A stretch of 64,000 nt of DNA from Candidatus Dadabacteria bacterium (GTDB taxonomy: Bacteria > Desulfobacterota_D > UBA1144 > Nemesobacterales > CSP1-2): positions 256,001 to 320,000 of the forward strand of contig CAWDVW010000006.1 in assembly GCA_963805855.1 (NCBI GenBank). Reading direction: 5' to 3'. Positions 2,983-45,418 of the stretch are shown in pieces. Made by a program: the position numbers and the translations under genes. Each line of letters starts with the position of its first letter. The first letter of the stretch is position 1. The notes under the pieces are model-generated. The model was not told the DNA's origin and did not search any database. It saw only the letters and a program-made list of their open reading frames with translations.

Positions 2983-4723
2983 TTGGATGTTTCGCCATTA
3001 TTCAAGTTTCCAAGAAGCTCCTTAAAATTTTCCAGTTTAAACAAACTAAACACTTCAGCCCCAGATTTTTCGTAAAATGCGTTTACCTTTCTCAACTTTC
3101 CACCATTTGACGCAACGAGTTTATAAAATGACTCGCTTATATTCTTATAATAATTGGTGTATATAGGAAAATATAAGCTATCCTTCATCTTATTTTCTGG
3201 AGATAGAAAAAAAGTCCTAAAAACTTGAAACCTTTCTTTCTCTGTTGTTGCATTAAGCAGATCAAATACTATCGAGTTAATTTTTACCTGACCTTTATTC
3301 AGGAAATACAACTGAGAATATAAGCCCCACTGTATATGGACTATATCATTGTAATCGATACCATTTTCGTCAATATACGATTTTAAATCGTAAATTGCTG
3401 GGCTAAAATATCCTGTACCGTTTGTTTTATTGGCTTCACTAACCTTGGCGTTTGAGACAACGAGATTCATACCCAATATAAGAATGGGTATGGCAAAGAC
3501 AATGAATCTCACTGGCTTATATACGCCAAATAATCTATACATTAAAACTAACGCAGACAAAATTGTTAGTTCATAAAATGGAATTAGATATACATAATGA
3601 CCAGCTCTTGTAGTATTTGGGCTTATCAGTATAAACACCATTATCAATAAGAATACGAGTAAAGGGAAAAAATATAATTTGTGTTCTTTTGCCTCTTTCA
3701 ATTTAAAAATTTTATATAGAGAGACAATGAATATAATTATAATTGCTAAAGTTATTACAATATATAAATAATAATACTCCCCAAAGAAAGAAAATAAAAT
3801 TTTGAATTTAATGCTGAGTTCATCAATAAGGGGTTTCGCTTGTTTATAATCTATAGGAGTTTTGTTGTATTCAGTGCGACTGAATATTTTTAGAAAAAAT
3901 GGTTTCAGCGTCGGAAACCCGGAATAGATGTTGTAGATTATATAATTAAATAATCCAAAAAAAACTCCAAGGAGGATAGTAATAATATTTTTAAAAGAGG
4001 ACAATACTGATATCCAATATTTTCTGAAGAACATGAAACTTGACAGGATCAAGGCGGCGATAATCCATGAAGAATAAAAAGCTAAATTTGCGCTAAAGAA
4101 AAGAAAAAAAACAGCTAGAAATAGAATTACAGGCTTATGAGACTTGGTAAAATATTTATGAAATAAGTATATTGACAGCGGTATTAAGAAAATGTGCCAG
4201 GAATCAGCGAAGCCATTGCGTATCTCTGGATAAAAAATTGGCGATGTTGCAATTAATAAGCTTGAGCAAAATGCAAGCAGAAAATTGTGTCTTGAGACAA
4301 TAAAAAAAAACCTGTTATCGATATAAAAAAATAGAAAAATTCAAGAAATCGTAAGCCAAACAGGTAGTTATCAAAAAAACAAATGGGTAAGAAAGGTATG
4401 ATAGCTACTGACGAAATGTATTGTTTATACATTAAAGGAATAGAAACATCAAAAAGGTGAATATCAAAAATGCTCTGATTATAGGGATATGCCACAGGAT
4501 TAAATAAGGGGATCAGGTTGTTTACTCTGAATACCTCATCAAATTGCAACCCATAATCCAGGCTGCCTCTAAATAAAAAACCAATAATTGCAAATAATAT
4601 TAAAATCACCAAGGTGCTTTTTATTTTATTTGCTTTACTGGGCAAATCTTTAATTTCGATTGTTGAACTCTTAATGGGCATCAGCATGTTTGCATATGGG
4701 CTAAGCAAACTATACTTTCTCAC
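2979..4723 (-). CDS. Polytopic membrane protein, GT-C-like, split by a frameshift in an A9 tract (4302-4310)
   Basis: ORFs 4253..4723 and 2979..4052 join if one base is added in the homopolymer. N-terminal QFDE motif follows the first TM; very AT-rich. Confidence 0.6.
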
Positions 4724-4824
4724 TAATTAAATATTGCGCCAATATTAATTTTGACCATACCCCATATGTTGTCATTTCTTGATAGAAAATTATTTTATTG
4801 CCTTGTGATAATCTTCAGGTTTGC

Positions 4825-5063
4825 CTATATCAATAAAATAACCATCTGATTTGTGAAGCCGTCTGAGTTGGCGTGGTCCATTAAATTTGCAGAAGGACCA
4901 ATCGTCCAGCCATACTTGCGATGGTATCTCCAATGGCGGCTGATATTGAGGTCATAACCGGAGAGACGAAACCCTAACTCGATGATGCCAAGAAAGAAAA
5001 CGAGGTAAGATAACAATAGTGGAGTCTTATACAGAACGTCTTTGTTCGTAACTTTCTTAGCCA
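4825..5063 (-). pseudogene. Truncated N-terminus of a membrane-anchored SGNH-hydrolase-like protein
   Basis: TM helix followed by IELGFRL...YHRKYGW...NSDGF resembles the N-terminal region of such proteins; ORF then ends. Confidence 0.3.
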
Positions 5064-5269
5064 TGTTGCTCACTGAGGTGAAGACAGTACATTGCAATCC
5101 GCGCCACACCACAAACAATGCGCATTCACTGTAAATGGATTAAAATTTTTAATTAACCCTCTTTCATATTGCCACCTCTCACCGTACTCATCTCTCATCT
5201 TTGAAGCACAGCCTGGACTCACCTTGGCGGCGCTCACCTAGCATTTAGCGACTTCTGTGTCTTTGCTCC

Positions 5270-6388
5270 TCATGATTCATATTTAACGTCAATGTCAACA
5301 TTTGAACTTGAATTGTTGGCTAATTCCCTCTCGGATTTTATTTTCATACTCTTCGCAGAATCTTCTTTAGCCGCCATGATTCCTTTAATTTTGCATGCCT
5401 TAAATGTCCACTTGTATGCGTTGTGTAAAAGCCGTGATGTTAAATTATCTTGGCTAAATCCATAAGTAGTGTTCAAATTGGCGATTTTGTCTAATTCAAA
5501 GGTTGACCTGATTTTTGCATTAAAGATAGGACGAATTACTTCCCATTCCTCCTCACTTCCCATGACCTCCGCCCACTTATGAAGCCCTGGATCCTGATGC
5601 AATCTACTTAAGATATACTGATCTCTTCCGCGAAGTATAAGACGTTTGCAAAAATCATGAAGTGTAATGGCACGATTCGCCATACTAACCGCTTTAGCGT
5701 TGTAGACAACCTTTAGGTTATATCGGGACAGACGGAATCCAAGCTCGATATCTTCACAAATACGCACAATGGGATTAAAAACGCCATATTCAATTAAAAA
5801 CGACCTCTTACAAGAAAGCCTTCCTGCCCAGAAATAGGTATAATCAAGAATATCTCCATGTTTTATATTTGGATATGAAAAAAGTAAATGGCCGACTTCA
5901 GTTATATAATGCATTAATGGTGTAAGTGTAAGACTTGGCGACCAGCCCGTATAATTCAATACGGCGTAGTTATCGTCTGGATATTTATCATGAGAATTTA
6001 TATGTTCTTCTAAAAGAGTTGGTGTTGCTATGTCATCATCGTCTAGAAAAAACAAGATTCTCCCTTGAGCTGCATATATACCATGATTCTTAGCTGAAGA
6101 ACGACCCGCATTTTTTTGATAGAAGTATTTGATCGGGAGTCGATCAAAAAATGAATATACATTCTCCTTTGTCTGATCATCAGACCCGTCGTCAATTATT
6201 ATGACCTCGTAATCTTTCTTATCCAAAGTTTGTTCAACAAGACTTTCAAGTGCCGTTTTAAGAAGACTATCTCGATTGAATGTATTTATGATGACACTAA
6301 GGTGAGGAGTATTTTTTACTGAATTCAAGTTATTATTCGGATCAGACGCACCTTTCTCGAAGGGCATTTTTTTTCTTCTGTGGCGCAT
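5270..6388 (-). CDS. Glycosyltransferase family 2
   Basis: SVIINTFNR, IIDDGSDD, FLDDDD and CEDIELGFRL motifs. Confidence 0.9.
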   Translation of the reverse strand: MRHRRKKMPFEKGASDPNNNLNSVKNTPHLSVIINTFNRDSLLKTALESLVEQTLDKKDYEVIIIDDGSDDQTKENVYSFFDRLPIKYFYQKNAGRSSAKNHGIYAAQGRILFFLDDDDIATPTLLEEHINSHDKYPDDNYAVLNYTGWSPSLTLTPLMHYITEVGHLLFSYPNIKHGDILDYTYFWAGRLSCKRSFLIEYGVFNPIVRICEDIELGFRLSRYNLKVVYNAKAVSMANRAITLHDFCKRLILRGRDQYILSRLHQDPGLHKWAEVMGSEEEWEVIRPIFNAKIRSTFELDKIANLNTTYGFSQDNLTSRLLHNAYKWTFKACKIKGIMAAKEDSAKSMKIKSERELANNSSSNVDIDVKYES

Positions 6389-7043
6389 TTGTTAAACGGT
6401 TTACTGAAGGTAAAAATAGCTTGAAAACATCGAAAGGCCTACAAATTTTCGTACTGCTAAATGGTTGATGTACCCAATCTCCAAGTAAATCGTGCCCACC
6501 CAATTTCTGAAAGATAGCAAAGTTTTCCCGAGTCTCTAATTTTTCCCATTTGGGATCATTCAGCATAAATTTTACCAGAATATGACAGCTTATTATGTCA
6601 GTATCGTCGATAAACATCAAGCCACCTTGTTTTAGAAGCTCTGCACAGTAAAACCAGTCAACTATTGGGAAGGGGAATCTATGAGCTCCGTCAATAAAGG
6701 CAATATCGTATTTTTCCCCGGAGATTCTTGGTAAAAGGTTGGGAGAATTGCCAATCGAGAATTCAAAACTGGCCAGAGATACGTCTAATTTACGGCAATA
6801 AGCTGTTATACGATTAACTTCATCTTGGGAGGAGACAATACTAGTATGGATGGAAGCATTGGTTATACAGAAATACCACGTGGTATAACCGGCTCCCGTC
6901 TCTGTTGTATGCATTCTTGGATTTAAGTAGTGGTCGAGAAACCTCAACAATTGCAAATTCGAATTCCACGATATTAAATTACCTTTCTCATCAAGCTGAA
7001 GTAATGGAAGGGCACTTTCTAATCTGTTTACTATTTGAGCCAT
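6342..7043 (-). CDS. Class I SAM-dependent methyltransferase (Methyltransf_24-like)
   Basis: ETGAGYTT, DIAFIDGAH and LKQGGLMFIDD motifs. Confidence 0.8.
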   Translation of the reverse strand: MAQIVNRLESALPLLQLDEKGNLISWNSNLQLLRFLDHYLNPRMHTTETGAGYTTWYFCITNASIHTSIVSSQDEVNRITAYCRKLDVSLASFEFSIGNSPNLLPRISGEKYDIAFIDGAHRFPFPIVDWFYCAELLKQGGLMFIDDTDIISCHILVKFMLNDPKWEKLETRENFAIFQKLGGHDLLGDWVHQPFSSTKICRPFDVFKLFLPSVNRLTNAPQKKKNALRERCV

Positions 7044-7228
7044 TTTTTATAATCACGCGAGTACTTTCATCTATAAAACCATAACTTGAAATCCCAGGCT
7101 TTTAATCCTGGGGAAAAATCTTTCCCTTAGCATAGCTCAGGTAAATTTTCGACATGCACTACGAAAACTAAGCAAGTCAGAAGGACGAATCGTTGGCCTT
7201 TAAACCGAGTAATGATTCACTTTTCATC

Positions 7229-7969
7229 CTATGAATACGACTCCAATATTCTAAATGCTTCTCCTTTCGATAAGTGAGGGTTCCGTGACAAATAGTCTTC
7301 CATATTTTTATTGGCTTTGTTATAGTCGTAGTTTGTAACAGGTTTTCTCATGCTATGATCTACAGGGGTAGCATCTATTATACCCATTCTCAAGCCCATC
7401 TTTTCGATTAGATAGGGCCACACGAAGTCGTAACCCCAACCCATGTAATTACTCTCATCGAAAGGGAAAATCAGTGAATATATATCGTGTCGCACAGAAA
7501 ATAGCGGTCCAATCTCAACATATCGAGTCCTTCTAGCCTTCAACCCAGAAAGCTGCCTGACAAAGTGGAAGTCTATATAGCTTTCATGGGTTCTTGCTGG
7601 TTGAGCGAGCGCAAAATCATATCTAGCAACCAACTGGAGATAAGATTCTAGAAAATTATCAGGCAATGCAATATCATCATCACAAATAATCACGAAATCA
7701 TAATGATCTAGATCTTCTTTTAGTAGCATCTTATTTAATAACACGAATTTGGGTAGTCCATCCTGAAAATCCATCTCTGTTACTTTTCTGACGTCTTCCG
7801 AAGAGATCTCTCCTCCTATGTTAATCCACTTCTGTTTCAATTTCCACTTACAGGACTTATTAAATTCGTTAACTAGATGCCCTATATTGTTTTTTTGCTT
7901 TGAAAGATAAATGCCTAATATTAAAATTGACACGTTACTTGGCATAAAAATCCCTCGTGAAGAAGTCAC
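7229..7969 (-). CDS. DUF707-like GT-A-related protein
   Basis: ICDDDI, LAQPA, YVEIGPLFS and GWGYDFVWP motifs. Confidence 0.6.
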   Translation of the reverse strand: MTSSRGIFMPSNVSILILGIYLSKQKNNIGHLVNEFNKSCKWKLKQKWINIGGEISSEDVRKVTEMDFQDGLPKFVLLNKMLLKEDLDHYDFVIICDDDIALPDNFLESYLQLVARYDFALAQPARTHESYIDFHFVRQLSGLKARRTRYVEIGPLFSVRHDIYSLIFPFDESNYMGWGYDFVWPYLIEKMGLRMGIIDATPVDHSMRKPVTNYDYNKANKNMEDYLSRNPHLSKGEAFRILESYS

Positions 7970-8012: not shown

Positions 8013-10733
8013 TTACCCAGCATCAAGCACGTCACCAAATTTCAAACTCATTTCGTCGTGCAATTGGTGCTCCTGTATCGAGTGAAAAATCTCAGCAAGC
8101 TTTTTACTGATAATTTCTTTAGAATAGTTTTTTTCAATATGTTCAATAGATTGTATAGAAATTTTATTCCAAAGCAACTCATCCGTATATAATCTTGCTA
8201 CAGCATCTGCAAATCCTTTTGGTTCATCTGTGATAAGCGCATTTTCACCATCTACAAGTCCCATGCCTTCTGCACCAATTTTAGTGGTCACCACCGGCAG
8301 ACCACAAGCCATGCTTTGTCCAATTTTACCCTTCATTCCTGAACCGTAGCGTAAGGGCGCAACAAATACACGACAATTCTTAAAGTAAGGGGTTACATCT
8401 TTCACGTACCCTGTTACTAAGATATCCTCTGAATGGAGTTGTTGAATTGATTTTGGGGGGTTACTACCAATTATGAAGAATTTCATATCTTCTATCTTGT
8501 TTTTAACTATTGGCAGTATTTCTCTGATAAAGTAAATAACAGCGTCCTCGTTCGGCCGATGAAAAAATCCACCTATAAACATTATATTTTTTCTTTCTTC
8601 AAATGTTCTGTCTACTTTGACAACATCGTGAACGTTTGGTACTACTTCTACCTTAAGTTCCGGGATTTCCTTTAACAAAAGTTCTTTTTCATCTTCAGTT
8701 ACAGTAAATACGGTGTCAGAGCAAGCAGAATTAAAAAGTTCCATAGATTTATAATGATTGGCCTCATGAAGCAGCGCCTCCTTTCCGCTAACCGTCGCAG
8801 CTCTTTTCAATCTCAACCAGTGAAGGTCGACCGTATCATATATGATGCTACTATTTATGGCATAGGCCCTAATATAGGGTATATATTTAAATGCAATTTC
8901 TGGTCTTGATAAAATTACAAAAGTAAAAATGTGTCCAATTTTTTGTAGGTATTTCTCGAAATCAACTGTTGCATCTAATATAGTTATTCCTATTTGGTGA
9001 AGTTCGCTCGAATACGGTTCCGTCTTCTTACAGTCATCGGGGAGAAAGGCGACCTTGAAGCCGATTTCATTTAGTATTCTTAACATTGAATACATTCTTA
9101 AGGATCCAGAGTCCTTATCATACGTAGGTACAAATCGATCAATTACAAGAATCCACTCATCTTCTTCTGATACAGTAACGATTATATCTCTCAAACCTAT
9201 ATCATCTTCAAATGTTATTTCCTTTGATTCTTTAATAGCCCTTGAGGGGTTTTTAAATTCTTTCAGTTTCTCCTTCGTTTTAAGGACAAACATTGACCAT
9301 CCTTGGAACGTAATTGTTTTAATGCTTTTCCAAAACAATTCATAGGTAGACCGCCTAAAGGTCCCAACCGGCATAACTCTAGCTTCCAAGCTACGGAATT
9401 TGGCTATCAACCGCCAACCAATACTGCTGTTAGCATCTAGCCAAAATTGATAAAGCGACTCTTTTTCCATAGCCATCTCTTCCACAGTCTTCTGCTTGTC
9501 ATTCACGACAACTCGAAGCTGCCCAACTCGTTCCGTTAACCGTTCTATCTCATCCGTTAGTAGATTCTCCTGTTGCTTTTGCTCTCCTAGTGCCTCTGCA
9601 AGTTGAGCTACGTGCTGCTCTTTGTCGGCGAGTAACTGCTGAAGTTGAGCTACGTGCTGCTCTTTGTCTGCGAGTGACTGCTGAAGTTGAGCTACGTGCT
9701 GCTCTTTGTCTGCGAGTGACTGCTGAAGTTGAGCTACATGCTGCTCTTTGTCTGCGAGTGACTGCTGTTGTAATTTTATTGTTATTGAAAAGTTGTTGAT
9801 TTGTTGATCCTTGCTTATCAAAACACTTTCTAACTGCGCCCTCGGTTCTTCATGATGGAACCGTTCGAGCAGCCTGGAAAACTTGCTAATGTTTTCTGAT
9901 ATCAAATTCTCCGGTCGACGATCCGAAGTTGAAGGTACAAATCCTTCCGTCGTAAGAGCACGCAGGCCAATGTAAAATAACTTATGTTCGGTTGTAAGCT
10001 TGTCTTCGTTTAAGAGTTCGAATGTTTCACAAGTATGGTGTCTTAACTCATGGAAAATTGTTTCATGAAGTTTGGATAGATCGTTAGGCCTTTGTAGCCC
10101 ACAGAACTCAACTAATTTGCTGATTTCCCGTGCCCAATCGTTAAAAAAGTCCTCATAAAAAGTAAAAATCCTGAGACAGCCTTCCGTATCCCGAATGGCT
10201 GCTTGCATATACTGATTCCAGAGCAATAGACCTTTTTGCATAGAGAATTTGTCGCGCCTAGCCAAGGACTTGGCGATTTCTAACGGGCTTCGAACACAGA
10301 TTACGAATCGTAGATCAGGAATGAGTAATTTCCAGAATGGAAGTAGGATAGTTGCCCGGGGGTCTTTCCATCCCCATGTTGGACTATTCGAAAAGATTTT
10401 CATTTGGTCTTTTGCTTTAAGGACAATTTGCTCTAATGAAGCATCGTACTCCCACCCCTCTTTAAATAGAGGTGGGTTATCCCAAGACCCTCCCAAGTGC
10501 GCAAGCAAAGCATCGTCGATTTCATAAGTGAAGCTCACGTTCTCGAAGTATCCCATTGGATTTGTCTCACTTGGTTCCATAAGCTGCTCAGGCGGACCTA
10601 AATCTAAACCACACAGGTTGAGCAAGCGAGCGATCATTGAAGTTCCACTGCGATGCATACCTATGATGCAGACCGCCTCATTGTTTTTTTCTTCCATATT
10701 GCTTTGCATCGAGCCACCCGTGGTAATGTCCAT
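8013..10733 (-). CDS. Sulfotransferase / coiled-coil / GT-B (GT4-like) glycosyltransferase fusion
   Basis: N-terminal GMHRSGTS and WGWKDPR (PAPS-binding sulfotransferase); central Q/E/K-rich heptad region; SIGWRLIAKFR amphipathic segment; C-terminal DSGSLR and APLRYGSGMKGKI GT motifs. Confidence 0.85.
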   Translation of the reverse strand: MDITTGGSMQSNMEEKNNEAVCIIGMHRSGTSMIARLLNLCGLDLGPPEQLMEPSETNPMGYFENVSFTYEIDDALLAHLGGSWDNPPLFKEGWEYDASLEQIVLKAKDQMKIFSNSPTWGWKDPRATILLPFWKLLIPDLRFVICVRSPLEIAKSLARRDKFSMQKGLLLWNQYMQAAIRDTEGCLRIFTFYEDFFNDWAREISKLVEFCGLQRPNDLSKLHETIFHELRHHTCETFELLNEDKLTTEHKLFYIGLRALTTEGFVPSTSDRRPENLISENISKFSRLLERFHHEEPRAQLESVLISKDQQINNFSITIKLQQQSLADKEQHVAQLQQSLADKEQHVAQLQQSLADKEQHVAQLQQLLADKEQHVAQLAEALGEQKQQENLLTDEIERLTERVGQLRVVVNDKQKTVEEMAMEKESLYQFWLDANSSIGWRLIAKFRSLEARVMPVGTFRRSTYELFWKSIKTITFQGWSMFVLKTKEKLKEFKNPSRAIKESKEITFEDDIGLRDIIVTVSEEDEWILVIDRFVPTYDKDSGSLRMYSMLRILNEIGFKVAFLPDDCKKTEPYSSELHQIGITILDATVDFEKYLQKIGHIFTFVILSRPEIAFKYIPYIRAYAINSSIIYDTVDLHWLRLKRAATVSGKEALLHEANHYKSMELFNSACSDTVFTVTEDEKELLLKEIPELKVEVVPNVHDVVKVDRTFEERKNIMFIGGFFHRPNEDAVIYFIREILPIVKNKIEDMKFFIIGSNPPKSIQQLHSEDILVTGYVKDVTPYFKNCRVFVAPLRYGSGMKGKIGQSMACGLPVVTTKIGAEGMGLVDGENALITDEPKGFADAVARLYTDELLWNKISIQSIEHIEKNYSKEIISKKLAEIFHSIQEHQLHDEMSLKFGDVLDAG
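9601..9767. repeat. In-frame tandem repeat, 4 x 42 bp (14-aa unit QQSLADKEQHVAQL)
   Basis: Near-identical units agttgagctacgtgctgctctttgtctgcgagtgactgctga start at 9601, 9643, 9685 and 9727. Confidence 0.95.
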
Positions 10734-10793
10734 TTGGTGTTTTCTTCTAGTTACTTTTTTTCCTTCTTATGCTATGCAAGATCCTCGATTTTA

Positions 10794-12203
10794 CTAAAGC
10801 GGTTTTGAGAAGTCGATCCTCATTTGGGTTGTTTTTTTTCTTTTTAATTTTAGGAGACGTCTGTATCCCACGCGTCCGGCCAGGTTATTTTCTTCGAAAG
10901 GGTCGTTATATAGATCAAAGAGGAATTCCTCTTTCCCTTGATTGTCTATATGCCTCAGATACTTATAACGATCTGTTCGAACCCCCTCGCTCTTTGCGAT
11001 GCCTGGCTGTTCAAACATATGTTCATAATACCATTCATTACGGATTTTGTTTGAAGCCCCTGCCATGAGAGGAATTAGGCTTATCCCTTGCGATAATTTC
11101 GACTGCGGGAGACCAGCTAACTCAAGGAGCGTAGGATAAAGGTCAATATTCAAGGTCATGGCGGGAACACGTTGTACCTCAGGCTTCACTGCGGGCTTAA
11201 TAATAAGAGGGATCCTAATGGACTCCTCGAATGCCCACCACTTGCCGGCAAGTCCGTGCTCGCCTAGGAGTAAACCATTATCTGACGTGAAAACCAAACA
11301 AGTTTTGTCGTACACGTCACTTTTCTTCAAAGTCGCTACTACTTTTCCTACTACTTCGTCTAAATGTGTGATTAGCCTATAATATTGCTTTACGGAGTGT
11401 TGATACAGTTTGTCGTTTGAGAACAGCCTCTTCCAGCGTCGTCGGCCCTCAGAGTGCTGCAAAAATGCGGGCAACCGATTAAAATGCTCTTCTGTGGCTG
11501 TAGGGGGTCGGGGTATTGTTACCTCTTCGTAGAGATGCGCAAACCTTGGATCAGATTTGAAGGGTTCAGGATCGTCGTCCTGCACATGTGGAGCCTTAGT
11601 GCTGATGGTGAGGCAGAATGGCTTACTTCCATTAATACCTTCTAGGAACTCTACGGATTGGCGACCTTGGATGGTTGTCAAGTGTTCCTGTCTGCCACCA
11701 GCCGGATCGAAATAGTAACCTTGCCCCGTAAATCCTCTCCAATAGTCAAATTCGTATTGTGGCATAGGACCACCGAGTCCCCATTTTCCTATAAAGGCGG
11801 TCTGATATCCAGCCTGCCGGAGCAGCATTGGGTACGATAACTGGAATTCTTCGTGGCTTAGAGGTGTGGAAAAATCCCAGACGTTGTGCCGGTGGGCGTA
11901 CTGTCCTGTAAGGATGCTAGCTCTGCTAGTGGGGCAAATAGAAGTGGTTACAAAATTATTTGTAAACAGGGTGCTGTCTGCTGCCAATGCATCAAGGTTT
12001 GGAGTGTGTATGATGCGGTTCCCAGTCACTCCTATTACATCCCAGCGTATATCATCTGCAAGGAAAACAACAAAATTAAGAGGCCATTTTTTGTGAGTAT
12101 CTTCACTGGGCTTCTTTATAACACCTAAACTTTGAGTACCCAGTGCCCCTGCAATGCCGCCAGTCACAATGCCGGTTATGAAAGACCTTCGATCAATTTT
12201 CAT
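10794..12203 (-). CDS. Tat-exported formylglycine-type sulfatase
   Basis: Twin-arginine signal DRRSFI; ADD, CPTSRASILTG (CxxxR), GKW and SDNG...GEHG...K sulfatase motifs. Confidence 0.9.
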   Translation of the reverse strand: MKIDRRSFITGIVTGGIAGALGTQSLGVIKKPSEDTHKKWPLNFVVFLADDIRWDVIGVTGNRIIHTPNLDALAADSTLFTNNFVTTSICPTSRASILTGQYAHRHNVWDFSTPLSHEEFQLSYPMLLRQAGYQTAFIGKWGLGGPMPQYEFDYWRGFTGQGYYFDPAGGRQEHLTTIQGRQSVEFLEGINGSKPFCLTISTKAPHVQDDDPEPFKSDPRFAHLYEEVTIPRPPTATEEHFNRLPAFLQHSEGRRRWKRLFSNDKLYQHSVKQYYRLITHLDEVVGKVVATLKKSDVYDKTCLVFTSDNGLLLGEHGLAGKWWAFEESIRIPLIIKPAVKPEVQRVPAMTLNIDLYPTLLELAGLPQSKLSQGISLIPLMAGASNKIRNEWYYEHMFEQPGIAKSEGVRTDRYKYLRHIDNQGKEEFLFDLYNDPFEENNLAGRVGYRRLLKLKRKKTTQMRIDFSKPL

Positions 12204-12346
12204 GGGTCAATCTCATAGTGCCTGTTTGTGGCTACGCTCTTGTATATTATCGTAAATTGAATATACCCTTAAGTCAGGAATATCGTCATTATTTGACTCT
12301 GACACCCAAAAGAATAAAGAACCTTCGGATGTTTTGTATAATCTCA

Positions 12347-13630
12347 CTATAACAGCTTCCATTCAATTGTTGCTTCGGGATCGAATAACCCAACATGGAG
12401 TTGATCGGCTATAATCTGAAATGCCATGTAATCAAATCGACGATCGTATACCACATATTCCCCTTCTTCATAAGCCGCGGCTCCAAGGCAAAGGAGATAC
12501 TCTCCAGGATTGATATTAATTCTCTGTCTGAACGTCACTAAGATCACGTCATCCTTCTCAAGCTGTCCAATCATTACATTGTGGTAGTAGGTATTTGTTC
12601 CGCATAAAATTGTTCCTTTGGGATCTTTTATTGAGAAAGCGATGATAGCCGAAGGCATGTTTTCATTATAACGTACCTTGATTCTTATCAGATACTCATG
12701 GTTTCGTTCCAATACCTGAACCGGTTCGCTATTCAGGGTGAAAATGCCGGCTTCTAATATTTCAGCCTTTTTAGTTCCATACCGATCTTCATTTGGGTTG
12801 ACCTTAAATAGTTCCTGCCACTCCACTTCTCCGGATGGGGATTTATCTTGTGAATTGATATTATCGGATTTTCTAGTTTTTGACGTAAGGGCTATCTCGC
12901 TCCTGGAAACAATCAGCCTATTGTATTCATCTACAACCGGTTTGGGCTTGCCCTCTGCGATCAAGGCACCCCTATCGAACAGCAGAGCTCGATCACAAAA
13001 AGTCGTGATCAGATTCAAACTATGAGTCACAAATACGATGGTTACTCCTTTATCCTTGAATTCTTGAAACTTTGCAAAGCACCTCGCTTGGAACAGAGCA
13101 TCTCCAACAGAAAGGGCTTCATCCACGATCAGAATGTCTGGGTCAATATTTATTGCAGCAGCAAAAGCCAAGCGCACAAACATTCCGGTTGAATATGTTT
13201 TTACCGGCTGGTCAATAAACTTCCCAATCTCAGCAAAAGCCTCAATCTTAGGAAAACGCCGGTCCATCTCATCCCGATTGAATCCCATCAAGGCCCCGTT
13301 CATAAGAACATTTTCACGACCCGAAAATTCCGGGTTAAAGCCAGCGCCTAGTTCTAACAGCGCAGCGATACGACCGTTAACTTTTACTGATCCATTTGTC
13401 GGCTGGAGCACACCGCATATTATCTTCAACATTGTACTCTTGCCACTCCCGTTTTGACCAATTATACCAATGTGCTGGCCTTTCTCTACGTTGAAAGACA
13501 CATCATTGAGGGCATGGAAAGCCTGATGAAATCTCTTTCCGTCGGTACTAAAGACCTCGCGCAGTCGGTCCTTGGGCGAATTATACAATTTGTAAATTTT
13601 GGTAACGTTATTGACTTCGATCGCATTCAT
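12347..13630 (-). CDS. wzt: Polysaccharide ABC transporter ATPase with C-terminal Wzt_C carbohydrate-binding domain
   Basis: Walker A GQNGSGKS, YSTGMFVRLAFA, DEALSVGD; about 150-aa C-terminal extension (RYGTKKAEI...NPGEYLL). Start placed at MNAIEV. Confidence 0.92.
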   Translation of the reverse strand: MNAIEVNNVTKIYKLYNSPKDRLREVFSTDGKRFHQAFHALNDVSFNVEKGQHIGIIGQNGSGKSTMLKIICGVLQPTNGSVKVNGRIAALLELGAGFNPEFSGRENVLMNGALMGFNRDEMDRRFPKIEAFAEIGKFIDQPVKTYSTGMFVRLAFAAAINIDPDILIVDEALSVGDALFQARCFAKFQEFKDKGVTIVFVTHSLNLITTFCDRALLFDRGALIAEGKPKPVVDEYNRLIVSRSEIALTSKTRKSDNINSQDKSPSGEVEWQELFKVNPNEDRYGTKKAEILEAGIFTLNSEPVQVLERNHEYLIRIKVRYNENMPSAIIAFSIKDPKGTILCGTNTYYHNVMIGQLEKDDVILVTFRQRININPGEYLLCLGAAAYEEGEYVVYDRRFDYMAFQIIADQLHVGLFDPEATIEWKLL

Positions 13631-13640
13631 GTTCAAACTC

Positions 13641-13885
13641 ACAAGATGCATGATTCAAGATTCATGATGCACGATATACCAGGCACGATGATTTTTTATA
13701 ATTGCCTCTCTGAAGTTAAATCGCTTTGCATCTTATCTCCCATCGCTATTACTAAGCTCATCAAAAACTTCTTTTTTAAGAAATTCTGTCTCATTCAGTA
13801 TCTCTAAATGAACTTTACTTTCATCGCGATTTCGCCTTTTTCGTCCTGTATCCTGCATCATGTATCCTGTATCATGCATCCTGTA
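13641..13885. repeat. Pair of inverted 7-bp-period repeat arrays (13641-13690 and 13842-13885)
   Basis: Left arm acaagatgcatgattcaagattcatgatgcacgata matches the reverse complement of the right arm, acaggatgcatgatacaggatacatgatgcaggata. Confidence 0.85.
13697..13830 (-). pseudogene. Remnant C-terminal half of a four-helix-bundle (23S rRNA IVS / bAvd-like) protein
   Basis: Minus strand reads DESKVHLEILNETEFLK..., then, frameshifted, FDELS...FNFREAII. It lies between the heptamer arrays. Confidence 0.55.
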
Positions 13886-13894
13886 CTTTCATTG

Positions 13895-14713
13895 TCATAG
13901 TACATCTCCGAAGGCGGGTTTTAATTTTTTAAAGATGAGCCCTCCGATTGCAAATGTGAATAGACTGAGTAAAAAGAGGTACGAAACGCCTTCGATATTT
14001 ATATTGATATCGGCTGTTCGCAAAAGACTTACACGATACCCTTCTATCGAATATATAATTGGGTTCAATCCGTAAACACCTTGCCAAAATTTAGGAATAA
14101 GATGCCGAGGGTAAATTATCGGCGTCAGAAAAAACCAGACGTTTACAAAAACTCCTATGATTTGCCCGATGTCTCGCAGAAAAACGTTGAGTGCAGAGAG
14201 CATCCAAGATAATCCGAGAGCAAATATTGCAGTTGTGAGTAATATTGGAATGATCAATAGAATTTTTAATGTTATACTATACCCAAAAAACACAAGAAGA
14301 CCGATAAAAATCACCACACCGATTAAGTGATTGATAATGGCTGCAATAAGAAGTGTAAAAGGCAATATCTCAGATGGAAATACGGTCTTACTGACCAAGC
14401 TCGACTGCTCTAGGACCGCTCCTGGAGATCGAGTTAAGACATCCGCGAAAAACATCCAAGGCAGTAGACCGGCTACCAGCCAAACTGCGAAATTGGTTCC
14501 ACCGTATTCGGGTCCTAATTTTATTTTTAAAATTACAGAAAACACAAAATAGTAAATGAGAAGTTGTGTTAGAGGATGAATGATTGACCAGAAAATCCCA
14601 AGAAATGATCCAACATGCCTTGCACGGATGTCACGGATTGCCATGCTCCAGATCATATACCTATTCCTATAAACACTAATAGTAAAATTTAAGAAATCCC
14701 TTAAAATTTGCAT
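13895..14713 (-). CDS. wzm: Polysaccharide ABC transporter permease
   Basis: ABC-2 motifs RDIRARHVGSFLGIFW, GLLPW, RDIGQI, FFLTPIIYP and LNP; adjacent to wzt. Confidence 0.92.
   Translation of the reverse strand: MQILRDFLNFTISVYRNRYMIWSMAIRDIRARHVGSFLGIFWSIIHPLTQLLIYYFVFSVILKIKLGPEYGGTNFAVWLVAGLLPWMFFADVLTRSPGAVLEQSSLVSKTVFPSEILPFTLLIAAIINHLIGVVIFIGLLVFFGYSITLKILLIIPILLTTAIFALGLSWMLSALNVFLRDIGQIIGVFVNVWFFLTPIIYPRHLIPKFWQGVYGLNPIIYSIEGYRVSLLRTADININIEGVSYLFLLSLFTFAIGGLIFKKLKPAFGDVL
14163..14648. repeat. Direct repeat copy 1 (about 486 bp, shared with 23221-23706)
   Basis: Near-identical by eye with offset 9058; one mismatch noticed (14617 vs 23675). Confidence 0.9.
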
Positions 14714-15210: not shown

Positions 15211-16788
15211 TCACGTAGGAGGTATGTTCCGACGGAGGAATTGCTCGTTGCTCGGCAATTGAGGTGTCTCAACAGGCTCGAAATTTGTCATAATGTATCT
15301 CCACACGAGGGAATGAGTATTGCGAAAGCGAAGATCATCCCGTCCATCTAATGCTACATCACGCAGAAGAACCCAGTTTACTCTATTATTTGTCAAATCT
15401 TGAATCATAATTTTCTGCTTGTCAATGGTTTCCCGATGAAGTAGATACGTATCATATACGGGGGCCTTGAGTTTTAAGATTGCGTAAAGACCAGGCGAAA
15501 AAGGTGCAATGAGTAATCCTTCGCGTGGAGCAACATGCTGGGCAACCAGTCGCTTGACAATGTCAATATAATCGGCCTGGTCTTTTGGCAGCCAAAGCTG
15601 ATCACCATTGATGCTATACTGAATTAGTTGATCATTAAATCGGAGTTTGAACATATACGGGTTATCTGTAACGATCATGGCAAAAACAGTGCCAGTAAGA
15701 ATTAAAACCACTAGACCTACAGCCAAGCCTTTATGATGATGTAAGATCAATGTATATAGCAGAGCCACGGAACCTAACAAGAATGGATGGATACTCTCAT
15801 CGAGATGTGGAAGGTCAGCCCGGCTAAAAGCGTGATGCAGGTAAAATATTCCTACAAAGGAAGAGGCAATTAGTAACGAATTACGTTGGACATCACTTGA
15901 TTTGCACCTTAACGACCATATGATTGAAAAAACATAAAAAATCGGAATAACCAAAAAGAACAAACCCAAGAAGAAACTGGATGCGCCGTTTAATATATCC
16001 AATTGAGTATAGTCAACAGTCCAAGGCCAGGGGACCGGTAAAAATATATTGGTATGGATAAATCCATTTTTAAGATGTTTTAATACTTTAACAAGGAACG
16101 CATCGTACATACCAGAAACAAAAAGCAGCATAAGCAGCATAGGAATATACCCTGCGATAATCCCGGCACTCCAGACTCCGTATCGCCTAAGTATGTTACT
16201 TTGCTTTTCCTTCAGCCACATAAAAAGTATGAGCATAAAAAATGCCAAGAAGGTATACAAGCCATGATTACGCCCCATCAGTGCCGCCAGGCCGACAAAT
16301 AAGCCGGAAAAGAAATAACGTTTAGAGACTGGTTCTTCGATTAGACAGACCGCTATATAAACTGCTGCCATGGCAACGCTAGGCTCAAATAACTTTTGCC
16401 AATGATACATATTCTGCATCCACACTAGTAATAATAACCCCACGAAACCTAATACCCACCAGTTTTTAACGACTCGTCTAGCGGCTAACAGTCCTAAGGT
16501 TAAACCTATTACCTGAAACATAGCTAAGGACAGCCGGAAGGCCATAATTCCCTGCCCAAATATTAAACCCCATGCTGCACCCCAGTAATATCGCCCAGGA
16601 TCATAGGACCGAAAATCTAACATGGGGATATCACCAGCCGCCGTGCGAATAGTTCCATACCACACATAGCCTTCATCAGCCAAGTTCAAACCAATATTGG
16701 CTTGGAGTAAAAAAGAGAGGCTTACGAGGACCAGAGCAATTAGAAGCGTATACAAAACTTCATGCTGCTGTGATTTATCTGCTGTCAT
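15211..16788 (-). CDS. Polytopic membrane protein, probable GT-C-fold glycosyltransferase
   Basis: ADEG motif after the first TM, DF..YDPGRYY loop, about 11 TM segments and a soluble C-terminal domain. Confidence 0.6.
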   Translation of the reverse strand: MTADKSQQHEVLYTLLIALVLVSLSFLLQANIGLNLADEGYVWYGTIRTAAGDIPMLDFRSYDPGRYYWGAAWGLIFGQGIMAFRLSLAMFQVIGLTLGLLAARRVVKNWWVLGFVGLLLLVWMQNMYHWQKLFEPSVAMAAVYIAVCLIEEPVSKRYFFSGLFVGLAALMGRNHGLYTFLAFFMLILFMWLKEKQSNILRRYGVWSAGIIAGYIPMLLMLLFVSGMYDAFLVKVLKHLKNGFIHTNIFLPVPWPWTVDYTQLDILNGASSFFLGLFFLVIPIFYVFSIIWSLRCKSSDVQRNSLLIASSFVGIFYLHHAFSRADLPHLDESIHPFLLGSVALLYTLILHHHKGLAVGLVVLILTGTVFAMIVTDNPYMFKLRFNDQLIQYSINGDQLWLPKDQADYIDIVKRLVAQHVAPREGLLIAPFSPGLYAILKLKAPVYDTYLLHRETIDKQKIMIQDLTNNRVNWVLLRDVALDGRDDLRFRNTHSLVWRYIMTNFEPVETPQLPSNEQFLRRNIPPT

Positions 16789-17051
16789 ATTTATGGTAAG
16801 TCCGTGTGGTTAGTTATCTCTTCGAGCTATGAAACCAAAATGCTTCGTAATTTCAGCGCTAAGCTGATTCTTGGATGACGCAAATTTATCTAGTAGATAT
16901 AAATGAATATTGATACAAAATAATTTGACCGATATCTGTGAAATCTCTTTCTTGCTAACTGGCGGCTTTAGTTACTTCCTTAACTGTATCCGAATATAAT
17001 TGACTATCAGACCTGGTTATGGGAGGCCAGAATATTAAAGGCTAGTGGTGA

Positions 17052-18185
17052 TTACCCTCCGAGAATTGTATAAACAGCTTCAACGACCCGTCCAATGTCT
17101 CTCTCTTCCATCCCGACCCACAGCGGTAAGCGAATCAAACAATTGCTTGCTAATTGCGTGTGTGGTAGATCAGCACTGGCCCTTCCATATCTTTTGCCAG
17201 CCGGAGCCGTGTGCAGGGGAACATAGTGAAAGAAAGCTTGAATGCCGGCCGCCTCCAAGTGTTCCAATACTAACGTACGATGTTCAAAACTAGGTAAAAT
17301 CAGGTAATATAAATGCCCATTGTGCCGACATTCAGTAGGAACAATGGGGCGACGTACCTGCTTTTGTCCTTCTAGTTCGACAAATGCCTGGTGATAGTGT
17401 CTCCATATATCCAACCTATGTTGAGTAATGAGTTCTGCTCCCTCCAATTGCGCATAGAGATAAGCAGCCGTGATTTCACTGGGCAGAAACGATGAACCTA
17501 TATCAACCCACGTGTACTTATCAACCTGGCCGCGAAAGAATTGACTTCGGTTTGTGCCTTTCTCCCAAATAATCTCAGCCCGCTCAGCCAAATTTGGATA
17601 GTTAATGAGCAGGGCTCCTCCATGACCCGAGATAAGATTTTTGCTCTCGTGAAAACTAAGCGTGGCCATGTGACCTATGCTACCCAGTGGACGCTCCTTA
17701 TACGTAGACATGATTGTCTGAGCTGCATCCTCGATCACCAACAAACCGTAACGGTCAGCAATAGCCATAATGGCATCCATCTCGCAAGCCACGCCAGCGT
17801 AATGTACTGGCACGATGGCTTTGGTGCGGGAAGTAATAGCGGCTTCGATCTTAGTTTCGTCAAGATTGAGAGTATCATGGCGAATATCAACAAAGACCGG
17901 AACCCCGCCTCGGAGAGCAAAGGCGTTTGCTGTAGAGACAAACGTGTAAGAGGGCATGATCACTTCATCACCAGGCTGGATATCCCCGAGGATCGCGGCC
18001 ATCTCGAGAGCACCAGTGCAAGAGTGCGTTAAAAAGGCACGATGGCAACTGATTTGTCTTTCTAACCACGCATGACATTTCTTCGTGAACACTCCACTGC
18101 CCGACAGGTGTCCATTCGCAATGGCTTGTTGAATGTAATCTAACTCTCTTCCCACCAAGTGTGGGCGGTTGAAATAAATATACAC
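17052..18185 (-). CDS. wecE: dTDP-4-amino-4,6-dideoxygalactose transaminase
   Basis: SCTGALEM, VPVHYAG, EDAAQ, SFHESKN and EKGTNRSQFFRGQVDKYTWVDIGSS (RffA signature). Confidence 0.9.
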   Translation of the reverse strand: MYIYFNRPHLVGRELDYIQQAIANGHLSGSGVFTKKCHAWLERQISCHRAFLTHSCTGALEMAAILGDIQPGDEVIMPSYTFVSTANAFALRGGVPVFVDIRHDTLNLDETKIEAAITSRTKAIVPVHYAGVACEMDAIMAIADRYGLLVIEDAAQTIMSTYKERPLGSIGHMATLSFHESKNLISGHGGALLINYPNLAERAEIIWEKGTNRSQFFRGQVDKYTWVDIGSSFLPSEITAAYLYAQLEGAELITQHRLDIWRHYHQAFVELEGQKQVRRPIVPTECRHNGHLYYLILPSFEHRTLVLEHLEAAGIQAFFHYVPLHTAPAGKRYGRASADLPHTQLASNCLIRLPLWVGMEERDIGRVVEAVYTILGG

Positions 18186-18657
18186 TTAGCTCAACCTTCT
18201 AGACTATTTGGCGATTGACGAAGGCATTTCTGGATATAAAGAAGTGTTTGCAAAAATACGAATTGGAGGAAGGATCTTAACCATAGCAGTAATCAAGAAA
18301 ATCGCGTATGTAACTTACCGGTCGCTATTCCCGTTGGTCCCACATAGAGTATACATCGCAGTTCTTCTAGATTTGTAGCAATGAGCGGCCGATAAAACGT
18401 GATTTTATTTGTGAGTGACTCCCATTCGTTAGTTTCCGAATTTTCTTTTGTTTGTAGCTAATTGAAGCAAAGAAAGAATTGACCGTAGCAAGTAGCTTGT
18501 TTGTACCGAGCAGATAACATGGTGATTAGTCAACAATCATTAATGAGGCAAAAGAGTTGTGTGACTCCAATACTGCTGGCAGAGGAAAATCATACAGTAA
18601 ACGAAATGATGATTTAGAATGGATGATCACATCCTATATTCAACATCATGAATTATA

Positions 18658-21286: not shown

Positions 21287-21374
21287 TTGTTTAGAATATC
21301 CAATAGTCTAATCACCTGTAACCAATTCAAGAAGAGTTTTACACAGGTATTATTCATGGTCTCGAGTCAAAAAG

Positions 21375-21466
21375 GCTGCGCAGGTAGTTAATGAGCAGGG
21401 CCTTCACCACAAAGAGCGTGTTTGGTTTCGTTGGAGATTAAGTTTGCCTAATGACCAATGCTATCC
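21375..21466 (-). pseudogene. Decayed internal fragment of a wecE-like gene
   Basis: Shares 17 nt (tagttaatgagcagggc) with wecE near 17599. Degenerate GSIGH...ETK...CGEG...LINY translation. Confidence 0.5.
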
Positions 21467-21474
21467 ATCTACGC

Positions 21475-23771: not shown

Positions 23772-23884
23772 ATCAAATTTTGATTTCGAGCTTAGCGTTA
23801 GCAATCTTAAGCCTTTTCTTTCGGCAACACTTTGAGCTAATTATAATTCGCTCGTCTAAAAGAAGTACTAAGTATCTTGTGAAA

Positions 23885-27873: not shown

Positions 27874-27935
27874 AGCTTATCTCAGACTAATGGTCATATA
27901 GTTTGTAATAATGTTCACAGGTTTTAGTCGGGCTT

Positions 27936-45371: not shown

Positions 45372-45418
45372 CATGGAGAAAACATAAGGATTGGAAACAA
45401 ACCTGTCATCACCTGAAA

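Follow-up and report, generated by a model that had tools for sequence, protein, structure and literature searches.

The window, a 64,000-nt stretch of DNA, holds what we consider on balance to be an ABC-transporter-dependent polymerase-terminator glycan locus, in which a predicted sulfotransferase would act as the chain terminator and to which a lineage-specific exported sulfatase appears to have been added. By analogy with WbbB and WbdD, the sulfotransferase domain of a large fusion protein may well be a sulfate chain-end capping enzyme; this reading is reasonable and rather probable, because the sulfotransferase on a stalk copies the plan of these two proteins and is widespread. The features of the locus are collected in Table 1.

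Table 1. Features of the glycan locus, with positions counted from the first nucleotide of the window.
Feature	Position	Strand	Basis
wzm, ABC-2 permease of glycan exporter, 272 aa	13895..14713	-	PF01061 (ABC2_membrane) 3.2e-23
wzt, exporter ATPase with C-terminal carbohydrate-binding domain, 434 aa	12347..13651	-	ABC_tran 5.8e-24, Wzt_C 9.3e-31
Wzt_C carbohydrate-binding domain, Wzt residues 287-424	12380..12793	-	Pfam Wzt_C 9.3e-31
Cys-type S1 (formylglycine) sulfatase, Tat signal, S1_25-like, 469 aa	10794..12203	-	PF00884 5.2e-48, SGSH_C 4.3e-26
Tat signal peptide region, MKIDRRSFITG..., about residues 1-27	12123..12203	-	read from sequence
Formylglycine motif C90-P-T-S-R94	11922..11936	-	sequence and alignment
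Fusion, 906 aa: sulfotransferase, coiled coil, helical linker, GT4	8013..10733	-	domain search and models
PAPS-type sulfotransferase domain, residues about 17-262	9948..10685	-	PF13469 8.2e-12, PF00685 3.6e-7, model
Long continuous helix, predicted coiled-coil ruler, residues 274-436	9426..9914	-	DSSP of models
42-bp tandem repeat inside ruler, 4.0 copies, 97% match	9600..9767	-	repeat search
Helical linker with conserved GWRL motif, candidate membrane-associating amphipathic helix, residues 437-491	9261..9425	-	model
GT4 (GT-B) glycosyltransferase domain, residues about 527-885	8079..9155	-	PF13692 3.2e-30, PF00534 4.8e-11
Downstream co-oriented genes, same locus	1363..7969	-	domain searches
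DUF707-like gene	7229-7969	-	
Methyltransf_24 gene, stand-alone methyltransferase	6342-7043	-	
GT2 gene	5270-6388	-	
Three unnamed ORFs	within 1363..7969	-	
PMT_2-type GT-C membrane glycosyltransferase	1363-2982	-	
Upstream co-oriented genes	15211..22500	-	domain searches
Polytopic membrane protein, 525 aa	15211-16788	-	
WecE-type dTDP-4-amino-4,6-dideoxyhexose transaminase	17052-18185	-	
DUF6817 gene and ATP-grasp ligase gene	within 15211..22500	-	
ArnC-like polyprenyl-phosphate sugar GT2	21475-22500	-	

The first-pass annotation had placed wzm, wzt, the sulfatase and the fusion consecutively and in one orientation, and their order, coordinates and shared strand were all borne out. The intergenic gaps measure 243 nt (wzm-wzt), 143 nt (wzt-sulfatase) and 60 nt (sulfatase-fusion), and in a terminator scan the minus strand between the four genes was free of terminator-like sites. 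Both sulfatase junctions are bridged by short-read contigs from salt-marsh metagenomes (12110-13100 and 10506-10901), and no joint bypassing the sulfatase gene was found among such contigs; this bridging is not independent support, since one run may be the genome's own source sample. The NCBIfam KpsM/Wzm-type matches of wzm all fell under their cut-offs, and wzm is duplicated in a 486-bp near-identical block, the second copy carrying an in-frame stop. The locus also encodes 6-deoxyhexose pathways (rmlABCD and the WecE-type transaminase), with rmlA and rmlD each split over two frames and no other copy of either in the assembly, as well as periplasmic tailoring enzymes (GT-C-type proteins and the ArnC-like GT2). 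Domain search detected no other sulfotransferase at the locus, and neither a mobile-element remnant nor a flanking repeat was found around the sulfatase. Genes for PAPS synthesis and formylglycine generation, expected elsewhere in the genome, were found there (an ATP sulfurylase, four APS kinase matches and FGE-domain genes), together with TatC and Omp85; LpxC was not found in the genome, which is 94% complete. The host is a salt-marsh bacterium.

The N-terminal domain of the fusion was confirmed as a sulfotransferase. Its Sulfotransfer_3 match spans residues 21-214 (8.2e-12), and the PAPS-binding motifs (GMHRSGTS, WGWKDPR and R148...S156) are intact and invariant in an alignment of 17 sequences. 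The model of this domain (pLDDT 82.8) returned PAPS-dependent sulfotransferases (for example TPST, SULT and Stf1) as its top Foldseek PDB matches; among its 49 matches at E <= 1e-3 was also the Fap7-Rps14 complex. A kinase at this position is ruled out by the sulfotransferase domain matches, the PAPS motifs and the structural matches. According to DSSP, a helix runs over residues 274-337 up to the fragment end in a first model and over residues 274-436 in a second. Residues 305-442 form a heptad-like stretch without proline, the ruler shows weak matches to SMC and ATG16 coiled coils, and its tandem repeat codes for four 14-residue (two-heptad) units. In the linker, helices 438-453 and 459-491 were modelled at low pLDDT, and relatives carry a similar W-R motif after the coiled coil in the alignment. 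Of the ruler and amphipathic helix annotated earlier, the ruler thus stands as a continuous helix, and the amphipathic helix is moderately supported by a hydrophobic moment of 0.42 over residues 437-454. The C-terminal Glyco_trans_1_4 match covers residues 715-851 (3.2e-30), and this GT4 part is TIGR03087-like (1.3e-34, under the cut-off).

In described systems, carbohydrate-binding domains read non-reducing-end caps, and terminators sit on coiled-coil rulers, according to the relevant parts of PMC11231755 and PMC9445017. A domain of this kind at the C-terminus of the locus Wzt is corroborated by the Pfam match and by solved Wzt C-domains: the last 160 aa match that of E. coli O9a (2r5o, 9.5e-6) and the A. 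aeolicus Wzt CBD (6o14, 0.0046). A further match is 8dky (about 0.004).

The sulfatase does bear a Tat signal, as judged from its RRSFITG twin-arginine motif, and has a formylglycine motif. In a 19-sequence alignment with its closest relatives, R5/R6 are nearly invariant and C90, S93 and R94 invariant; the active-site and metal-binding residues D50, D51, C90, R94, K140, H206, D308, N309 and K321 are likewise invariant among the 19 relatives. Its best solved relative is 6hr5 (7.1e-83, 282 bits, residues 34-461; the next scores 207 bits). The nearest characterised relative, P36_S1_25, is an exo enzyme that takes 3-O-sulfate off non-reducing-end rhamnose. A link to rhamnose appears weakened at this locus, as rmlA and rmlD are split and the sulfatase is a putative rather than an assigned S1_25 member.

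The sulfotransferase domain has 587 relatives in species genomes, indicating that the layout is widespread. Among the best 80 of these 587, with exporter genes sought within 10 kb, a homologue of the GT4 part occurs at 27 loci and wzm plus wzt at 12, the remaining 68 being without wzm/wzt in that range. Wzt_C is present at six of the 12, and the Wzt of five is short and lacks a CBM; a cap reader therefore does not accompany every sulfotransferase-stalk. In four of the 12, wzt is followed directly by the sulfotransferase gene, the spot that the sulfatase occupies here. A sulfatase was present at one of the 80 loci and at none of the 12 with wzm/wzt; the single case, from another subfamily, is spread over two frames, and its genome has 41 sulfatase matches. 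Viewed from the sulfatase side, no sulfotransferase, Wzm, Wzt_C or GT4 was found at 80 loci of relatives with 44-53% identity (the closest orthologues have 56-84%). The 75 nearest neighbours at 39 such loci are heterogeneous and often catabolic, with five other sulfatases and also FGE, heparinase-like, GH20, GH97 and sugar kinase genes. No close relative of the locus sulfatase occurs in five genomes with sulfotransferase loci, and the host genome's own relatives have neither the fusion nor the sulfatase. The first-pass annotation had envisaged a dedicated cap-export-uncap system; since homologous loci do not share the sulfatase, that proposal finds no support as a conserved system. The arrangement is unique among the 160 related loci examined, and the sulfatase, judged from these gene neighbourhoods, does not belong to sulfotransferase-ruler systems in general and was possibly recruited to the locus in this lineage.

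We propose the following mechanism. A lipid-linked glycan would grow at the cytoplasmic membrane face through GT2 and GT4 enzymes, the C-terminal GT4 domain of the fusion among them, until its end reached the sulfotransferase, which a coiled coil of roughly 160 residues would keep about 20 nm away. The sugar at the non-reducing end would receive a sulfate, upon which elongation would rather probably stop; the Wzt C-terminal domain would read the sulfated end, and Wzm/Wzt would export the chain. The sulfatase, probably co-transcribed with its neighbours, would be folded and converted to its formylglycine form in the cytoplasm and pass through Tat to the periplasm, where it might, as a tentative suggestion, strip the terminal sulfate ester off the exported glycan, or else have an unrelated scavenging role.

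Action of the sulfatase on the glycan made by its own locus is possible, though we would not presume it; local uncapping would fit the gene order, the shared strand, the base composition and the way in which the nearest characterised sulfatase acts, as an exo enzyme at the non-reducing end. The 6-deoxyhexose pathways and the periplasmic tailoring enzymes encoded at the locus likewise favour a local link. It is also conceivable, and to be taken seriously, that the enzyme is a passenger, namely a Tat-exported exo-sulfatase scavenging sulfate or sugars from salt-marsh sulfated glycans with no role on the locus's glycan, and that the recombination building a mosaic locus dropped its gene into the wzt-terminator gap. 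The catabolic nature of the characterised S1_25 enzymes fits such an origin, as do the often catabolic surroundings of its relatives, the survey counts from both sides, the related loci in which wzt leads straight into the sulfotransferase gene, and the signs of recombination and decay (duplicated wzm, in-frame stop, split rmlA and rmlD). The window was moreover chosen because of this very coincidence of genes, and a few chance adjacencies would be expected among hundreds of such loci. A passenger is harder to reconcile with a co-oriented gene within the operon that has neither predicted terminators on either side nor traces of mobile elements around it, and whose GC3 (0.453) equals those of wzt (0.444), the sulfotransferase domain (0.449) and the coiled coil (0.446), the GT4 part having 0.327. 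Furthermore, since the 3.1-Mb genome contains only four strong sulfatase matches, of which the locus sulfatase is the sole one of its subfamily and the other three are clustered on another contig, a sulfatase should rarely be a random neighbour in it.

We regard it as very unlikely that sulfate is a transient export tag, removed by the periplasmic sulfatase from essentially every exported chain. Gene order and co-orientation, the predicted Tat export and the action of the nearest characterised relatives at the non-reducing end would all suit such a step, and the freed terminus could serve the periplasmic GT-C-type enzymes. In the Aeromonas salmonicida cluster, as far as its description in PMC4483657 extends, a sulfotransferase-domain ORF lies between wzt and wbbB, although sulfate has not been seen in the O-antigen structure; this would agree with a cap that was lost or overlooked, but no sulfatase is listed for the cluster. 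Obligatory uncapping is opposed by the uniqueness of the arrangement and by two loci, L012 and L090, that combine a sulfotransferase-ruler with a CBM-bearing Wzt in genomes without a close relative of this sulfatase, so that exporting sulfate-ended chains evidently does not depend on uncapping. Another reading, also unlikely, is that the sulfotransferase sulfates internal residues without terminating the chain, the coiled coil merely scaffolding an assembly complex, with length and export recognition set otherwise, for example by a methyl cap that the Methyltransf_24 enzyme could provide. Internal residues could indeed be the target, given the stand-alone methyltransferase at the locus, the CBM-less Wzt at five of the 12 related loci, the 68 loci without wzm/wzt and, in the excerpted literature on known bacterial sulfated polysaccharides, internal sulfate. 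Yet the sulfotransferase sits at the helix end distal to the GT and the putative membrane-binding helices, which is the terminator's place in the pertinent part of PMC11231755. The absence of a second sulfotransferase at the locus also speaks for a cap rather than internal sulfation.

Several polysaccharide biosynthesis operons encode periplasmic or extracellular editing enzymes (AlgL, BcsZ, PslG, PelA and PgaB), and Sulf1 and Sulf2 are animal extracellular endosulfatases. By analogy only, the locus sulfatase would follow their logic, in which a hydrolytic or de-modifying enzyme, once exported, works on the finished polymer of its own operon and so tunes charge or clears stray polymer; we know of none among them that removes a chain-end export cap or is a sulfatase of a bacterial Wzm/Wzt pathway. 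Like P36_S1_25 from Formosa agariphila (PDB 6HR5), the locus enzyme is a formylglycine-type S1 sulfatase with an SGSH_C subdomain. P36_S1_25 and SWF4 (S1_25), exo-3-sulfo-L-rhamnose and exo-3-sulfo-L-fucose sulfatases, belong to algal-polysaccharide degradation, whereas the locus sulfatase lies in a biosynthetic operon and carries a Tat signal; it also stands alone, unlike P36 with its fused GH78 rhamnosidase.

The likeness of the locus to the terminator-ruler-CBM systems of WbbB and WbdD, drawn in the first-pass annotation, stands for the architecture and falls for a conserved sulfatase step. The general plan is described in PMC11231755. As in WbbB (Klebsiella pneumoniae O12 / Raoultella terrigena) and K. 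pneumoniae O7 ORF6, a single polypeptide has a terminator-type catalytic module at its N-terminus, then a coiled-coil ruler, and glycosyltransferase sequence at its C-terminus, and the gene adjoins wzm and a CBM-bearing wzt. Different from WbbB and ORF6, the head is predicted to be a PAPS sulfotransferase rather than a Kdo transferase (GT99) or methyltransferase-kinase, the fusion has a single GT domain, of family GT4, and wzt is separated from the fusion by a sulfatase gene. WbdD (E. coli O9a / K. pneumoniae O3), a kinase-methyltransferase terminator and molecular ruler in the part of PMC3482155 devoted to it, would differ in its chemistry, methyl-phosphate as against the sulfate predicted here, and recruits a separate polymerase, whereas the locus head is fused to its GT. 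Shared with WbdD are a catalytic head carried by a coiled coil, a helix behind it that associates with the membrane at the C-terminus of WbdD and is a candidate for doing so here, and a Wzt C-domain that matches the cap-reading one of O9a; many stand-alone relatives of the sulfotransferase (e.g. P0011 and P0018) come closer still, with a WbdD-like head, coil and short amphipathic tail.

In the locus, the four genes that the first-pass annotation had listed as consecutive and co-oriented, namely wzm, wzt, a sulfatase gene and the gene of a 906-aa fusion protein, were all found in this order on the minus strand, separated by gaps of 243, 143 and 60 nt, and a consensus scan of the minus strand placed no terminator-like site in these gaps. 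The sulfatase gene is probably co-transcribed with its neighbors. Both of its ends are bridged by short-read contigs from salt-marsh metagenomes, one run of which may be the genome's own source, and no joint skipping the gene was found among the contigs of four salt-marsh runs (pieces of 150-990 bases, low depth). The Wzm/Wzt pair is the ABC-2 exporter characteristic of a capped, ruler-controlled pathway, and Wzt bears the C-terminal carbohydrate-binding domain (CBM), which also matches 2r5o (9.5e-6) and 6o14 (0.0046). In the spacer between wzt and wzm (13645-13884), which contains short purine-rich repeats, metagenome contigs end or enter unrelated sequence at 13645/13678 and 13847/13880, and the spacer is probably a repeated element common to other places or organisms. 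Directly 3' of the fusion gene lies a DUF707-like gene. Since one database relative, P0056, is a Sulfotransfer_3 domain fused to DUF707, the fusion protein and the DUF707-like protein may act together.

Features of the glycan-export locus and its surroundings, by position in the window
Feature	Position	Strand	Assignment
PMT_2-type GT-C	1363-2982		
DUF707-like gene	7229-7969		
Fusion protein, 906 aa	8013-10733	minus	Sulfotransfer_3 (residues 21-214); GT4 (residues 715-851)
Sulfatase	10794-12203	minus	PF00884 5.2e-48 (164 bits); SGSH_C 4.3e-26
wzt	12347-13651	minus	ABC ATPase, PF00005 5.8e-24; Wzt_C 9.3e-31
wzm	13895-14713	minus	ABC-2 permease, PF01061 3.2e-23
Polytopic protein, 525 aa	15211-16788		No family match
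ArnC-like gene	21475-22500		Polyprenyl-phosphate sugar GT2
Second wzm copy	23055-23804		
rmlD	23885-24701		Two overlapping frames
rmlA	26781-27876		Two overlapping frames
PaaK/F390-synthetase-like gene	35887-37277		Split in two

The N-terminal domain of the fusion protein had been proposed to be a sulfotransferase, and domain search, alignment and structure prediction all upheld this assignment. It scored 46.3 bits against PF13469 (cut-off 27), and in an alignment with 16 relatives (17 sequences) GMHRSGTS (residues 25-32), WGWKDPR (120-126), R148 and S156 were invariant, motifs that we take to be the loop for the 5'-phosphosulfate and the Arg/Ser pair for the 3'-phosphate in PAPS sulfotransferases. 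An AlphaFold model of residues 1-338 (mean pLDDT 82.8) yielded 49 Foldseek matches in the PDB at E <= 1e-3, the top ones being PAP- or PAPS-bound sulfotransferases (TPST1/2, SULTs and Stf1); the Fap7-Rps14 complex was also among the matches. A kinase as the N-terminal domain is ruled out by the Pfam domains, the invariant sulfotransferase motifs and the structural matches.

Between the sulfotransferase and the glycosyltransferase, the long ruler-type helix expected from the first-pass annotation was recovered. The full-length model, taken for secondary structure only because of its low confidence (mean pLDDT 63.8), contains a continuous helix over residues 274-436, followed by helices 438-453 and 459-491 and then a GT-B domain, and residues 305-442 are heptad-like and without proline. 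A terminator-type catalytic module is thus joined to a long predicted coiled coil, whose roughly 160 residues would reach about 20-24 nm. Furthermore, a 42-bp tandem repeat at 9600-9767 (4.0 copies, 97% match) codes for four 14-residue, two-heptad units in the predicted ruler. Gain or loss of copies of such near-perfect repeats would lengthen or shorten the ruler by about 2 nm at a time, suggesting a possible natural route to stepwise variation of chain length.

A protein search with the sulfotransferase retrieved 526 relatives, many of which are Sulfotransfer_3 domains fused to GT2 and/or GT4, and a scan of one genome per species gave 587 sulfotransferase-stalk loci, distributed over Verrucomicrobiota, Planctomycetota, Chloroflexota, Acidobacteriota, Actinomycetota, Nitrospirota, Calditrichota and other phyla. 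Among the best 80 of these loci, a homolog of the GT4 part of the window's fusion occurs in 27, and wzm and wzt lie within 10 kb in 12. Seven of the 12 Wzt proteins are long (427-704 aa) and five short (192-296 aa); Pfam detected Wzt_C in six of the seven long ones (loci L012, L028, L034, L062, L074 and L090), and the sulfotransferase gene directly follows wzt in four of the 12 (L012, L034, L062 and L069).

The sulfatase was confirmed as a Tat-signal enzyme with an intact active-site motif. Its N-terminus, MKIDRRSFITG, holds the twin-arginine motif, C90-P-T-S-R94 is the formylglycine motif of Cys-type S1 sulfatases, and both are retained in an alignment with the 18 closest relatives. In the same 19 sequences, D50, D51, C90, R94, K140, H206, D308, N309 and K321 are invariant, presumably the metal-binding and catalytic positions of an S1 sulfatase. 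Judged by these sequence features, the enzyme is a genuine sulfatase and predicted to be exported; the Cys-x-P-x-R motif rules out a Thr-type phosphoesterase. Its best solved relative is 6HR5 (7.1e-83, 282 bits, a 75-bit lead over the next at 207 bits), which is the S1_25 domain of P36 from Formosa agariphila, and the window's enzyme is a candidate member of S1_25, which in SulfAtlas comprises exo-3-sulfo-6-deoxy-L-hexose sulfatases (terminal Rha3S/Fuc3S). According to PMC8511951, P36 S1_25 desulfates the non-reducing-end rhamnose of Rha3S-X-Rha3S trisaccharides. Such desulfation is the type of activity that an uncapping enzyme would need.

The first-pass annotation had further proposed a cap-export-uncap system in which the sulfatase removes or edits a sulfate cap after export. 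As a conserved system, this proposal did not survive comparison with related loci. A sulfatase homolog was found in one of the best 80 sulfotransferase loci and in none of the 12 with wzm and wzt. In the sole case, L057 (9965-16002, from a Haliea sp. MAG), the sulfatase belongs to a different subfamily, has a CTASR motif and a signal of Sec type, and reads in two frames. It lies downstream of a 997-aa GT2-GT4 gene, and a 449-aa sulfotransferase-coil gene runs convergent with it; since that genome has 41 sulfatase matches, chance adjacency is plausible there. Moreover, no close relative of the window's sulfatase (E <= 1e-40) was found in five genomes with sulfotransferase loci, including those of L012 and L090, the loci most like the window's among the five. 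Approached from the sulfatase, the result was the same: no sulfotransferase, Wzm, Wzt_C or GT4 was found near its relatives in the best 80 of 490 metagenome loci (44-53% identity), 45 of which are at least 8 kb long, and one locus gave a weak generic ABC ATPase match. The metagenome scan behind these loci was alignment-based; the closest orthologs, P0125-P0135 (56-84% identity), fall outside this set and are carried for the most part by short contigs from Logan, ENA or NCBI. With the sulfatase sequence alone as query, a scan of metagenome contigs gave no confirmed relative.

Within the window's phylum, the sulfatase occurs in its own genome only (one of 120 species genomes, at 1e-60), as does the full-length fusion among the 41 genomes searched. 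Scans for closer relatives of the sulfatase gave a match in none of 401 genomes of one phylum and in one of 86 of another, at 50% identity. The sulfatase is a one-genome addition that fills a position empty in related sulfotransferase loci, and its absence from those loci indicates that sulfotransferase-ruler systems work without it.

The genome encodes supply functions for sulfation and candidate ones for sulfatase maturation. PAPS synthesis genes were located in the genome, namely an ATP sulfurylase and four APS kinase matches. Three PF03781 (FGE-domain) matches over the cut-off lie in two open frames, FGE-type domains occurring also in other enzymes, and no anaerobic sulfatase maturase reached the cut-off (best 62 bits vs 349). 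TatC is present, and two Omp85-family proteins make an outer membrane and a periplasm likely. LpxC gave no match in the 94%-complete assembly, so that attachment of the glycan to lipopolysaccharide cannot be claimed; either the LpxC gene is unassembled, or the outer membrane of this organism, if it has one, may lack classical lipid A. Contig C2 (about 40,500-45,700; locus L172, 8534-13644) carries another wzm/wzt pair, also with a Wzt_C domain, followed by a 256-aa unnamed ORF, a methyltransferase and a DUF268 protein. Directly upstream of this pair are two genes for APS kinase, one of which is fused to DUF2061, and their chaining to a glycan exporter suggests a second sulfated glycan in the same organism.

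The region shows signs of past rearrangement. Upstream of the first wzm, at a distance of 9,058 bp, there is a second copy; its central 486-bp block (23221-23706) differs from 14163-14648 by one mismatch, both flanks being far more diverged. An in-frame TAA cuts this second copy short by about 31 codons, and no wzt comes after it. This copy looks like a scar of gene conversion or recombination, and the repeated block could mediate deletion of the intervening 9 kb. Both rmlD and rmlA read in two overlapping frames, and no other copy of rmlA, rmlC or rmlD was found in the assembled genome. The PaaK-like gene is split beside an intact paralog; the breaks in all three genes are either real pseudogenes or assembly indel errors. 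The second wzm copy and the split rmlA and rmlD point to a mosaic region reshaped by recombination, into which the sulfatase could have been recruited or merely dropped.

Two readings of the sulfatase have to be weighed: 1) it acts on the glycan of its own locus; 2) it is an unrelated scavenging enzyme. Co-orientation with the operon, the short gaps and the lack of a predicted terminator speak for the link. At 0.453, the third-position GC of the sulfatase nearly equals that of wzt (0.444), of the sulfotransferase domain (0.449) and of the coiled coil (0.446); the values are lower for the GT4 part (0.327) and most other locus genes. By composition, the sulfatase thus belongs to a single block with wzt and the terminator head, and the fusion has a mosaic look of its own. 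This comparison gave no compositional sign of a foreign insertion, and neither flanking repeats nor mobile-element remains were found around the sulfatase. The genome has four strong sulfatase matches only, and the window's enzyme is the sole member of its subfamily (next paralog 24% identical); the other three are clustered on another contig. The locus also has rmlA-D and a WecE-type transaminase, representing 6-deoxyhexose pathways, and periplasmic tailoring functions: the PMT_2-type GT-C, the second, GT-C-like 525-aa membrane protein and the ArnC-like GT2 are the make-up of a periplasmic glycan-glycosylation system. With these features, action on its own glycan is a possibility that we entertain tentatively, and if it is right, the locus would show that an export tag that has done its work can be taken off again, and that a degradative enzyme can be enlisted for glycan editing.

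The scavenging reading, which is plausible without being favored, would be in keeping with the company of the sulfatase's relatives. Among the 75 ORFs nearest to them in 39 of the 45 longer loci (six apparent duplicates omitted) there were five other sulfatases, one FGE, one heparinase II/III-like protein, GH20, GH97 and arabinofuranosidase-type domains, two FGGY sugar kinases and assorted unrelated genes, and no exporter or sulfotransferase. The window was, moreover, chosen for the coincidence, and because hundreds of sulfotransferase-stalk loci exist in nature, a few chance sulfatase neighbors would be expected. The three other sulfatase matches of the genome lie within 15 kb on contig C5 (762,712-777,052), about 80 kb from an FGE-domain gene (855,636-856,352), and this cluster may be a sulfated-glycan utilization region. 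On present evidence, the adjacency in the window does not amount to a system: it is a coincidence confined to one genome, some features of which are suggestive.

Carried further than in the first-pass annotation, the proposal would make sulfate a removable chain-end export tag. The stalk sulfotransferase would 3-O-sulfate a terminal 6-deoxyhexose, whereupon growth would stop and export be licensed via the CBM-bearing Wzt; the Tat-exported S1_25-like exo-sulfatase would then strip the sulfate in the periplasm, and the bared non-reducing end would be open to periplasmic glycosylation by the GT-C enzymes of the locus, or the surface charge would be reset. We consider this complete sequence of events improbable. 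If true, Wzm/Wzt pathways would gain their first uncapping step, with a catabolic sulfatase caught entering a biosynthetic operon.

The best-supported reading of the locus is a WbbB-like polymerase-terminator pathway with a sulfotransferase as terminator, and from the sequence evidence we somewhat favor sulfate as the chain-end cap. Many stand-alone relatives of the sulfotransferase share the layout of WbdD, in which a long coil connects the catalytic head to a short amphipathic tail. Among readable papers, a literature search found neither a sulfotransferase terminator nor an uncapping sulfatase, and a 2019 terminator census (Mann, Kimber, Whitfield, Glycobiology 29:822) may predict the former. 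For Aeromonas salmonicida A450, PMC4483657 describes an O-antigen structure in which no sulfate is seen and a cluster where a 216-aa ORF with a sulfotransferase domain separates wzt from wbbB; this cluster is a lead only. Known terminators are mounted on coiled-coil rulers, as stated in PMC11231755, and PMC9445017 names methyl, methyl-phosphate or Kdo as the caps read by the Wzt carbohydrate-binding domain, sulfate not being listed there, and gives the A. aeolicus cap as 3-O-methyl on terminal rhamnose or mannose. Different from the methyl, methyl-phosphate and Kdo chemistries so far described, the predicted terminator in the window is a sulfotransferase, a new chemistry for a known system type that recurs widely; if sulfate is indeed the chain-end cap, it joins these length-setting modifications across a many-phyla family of 587 loci in species genomes.
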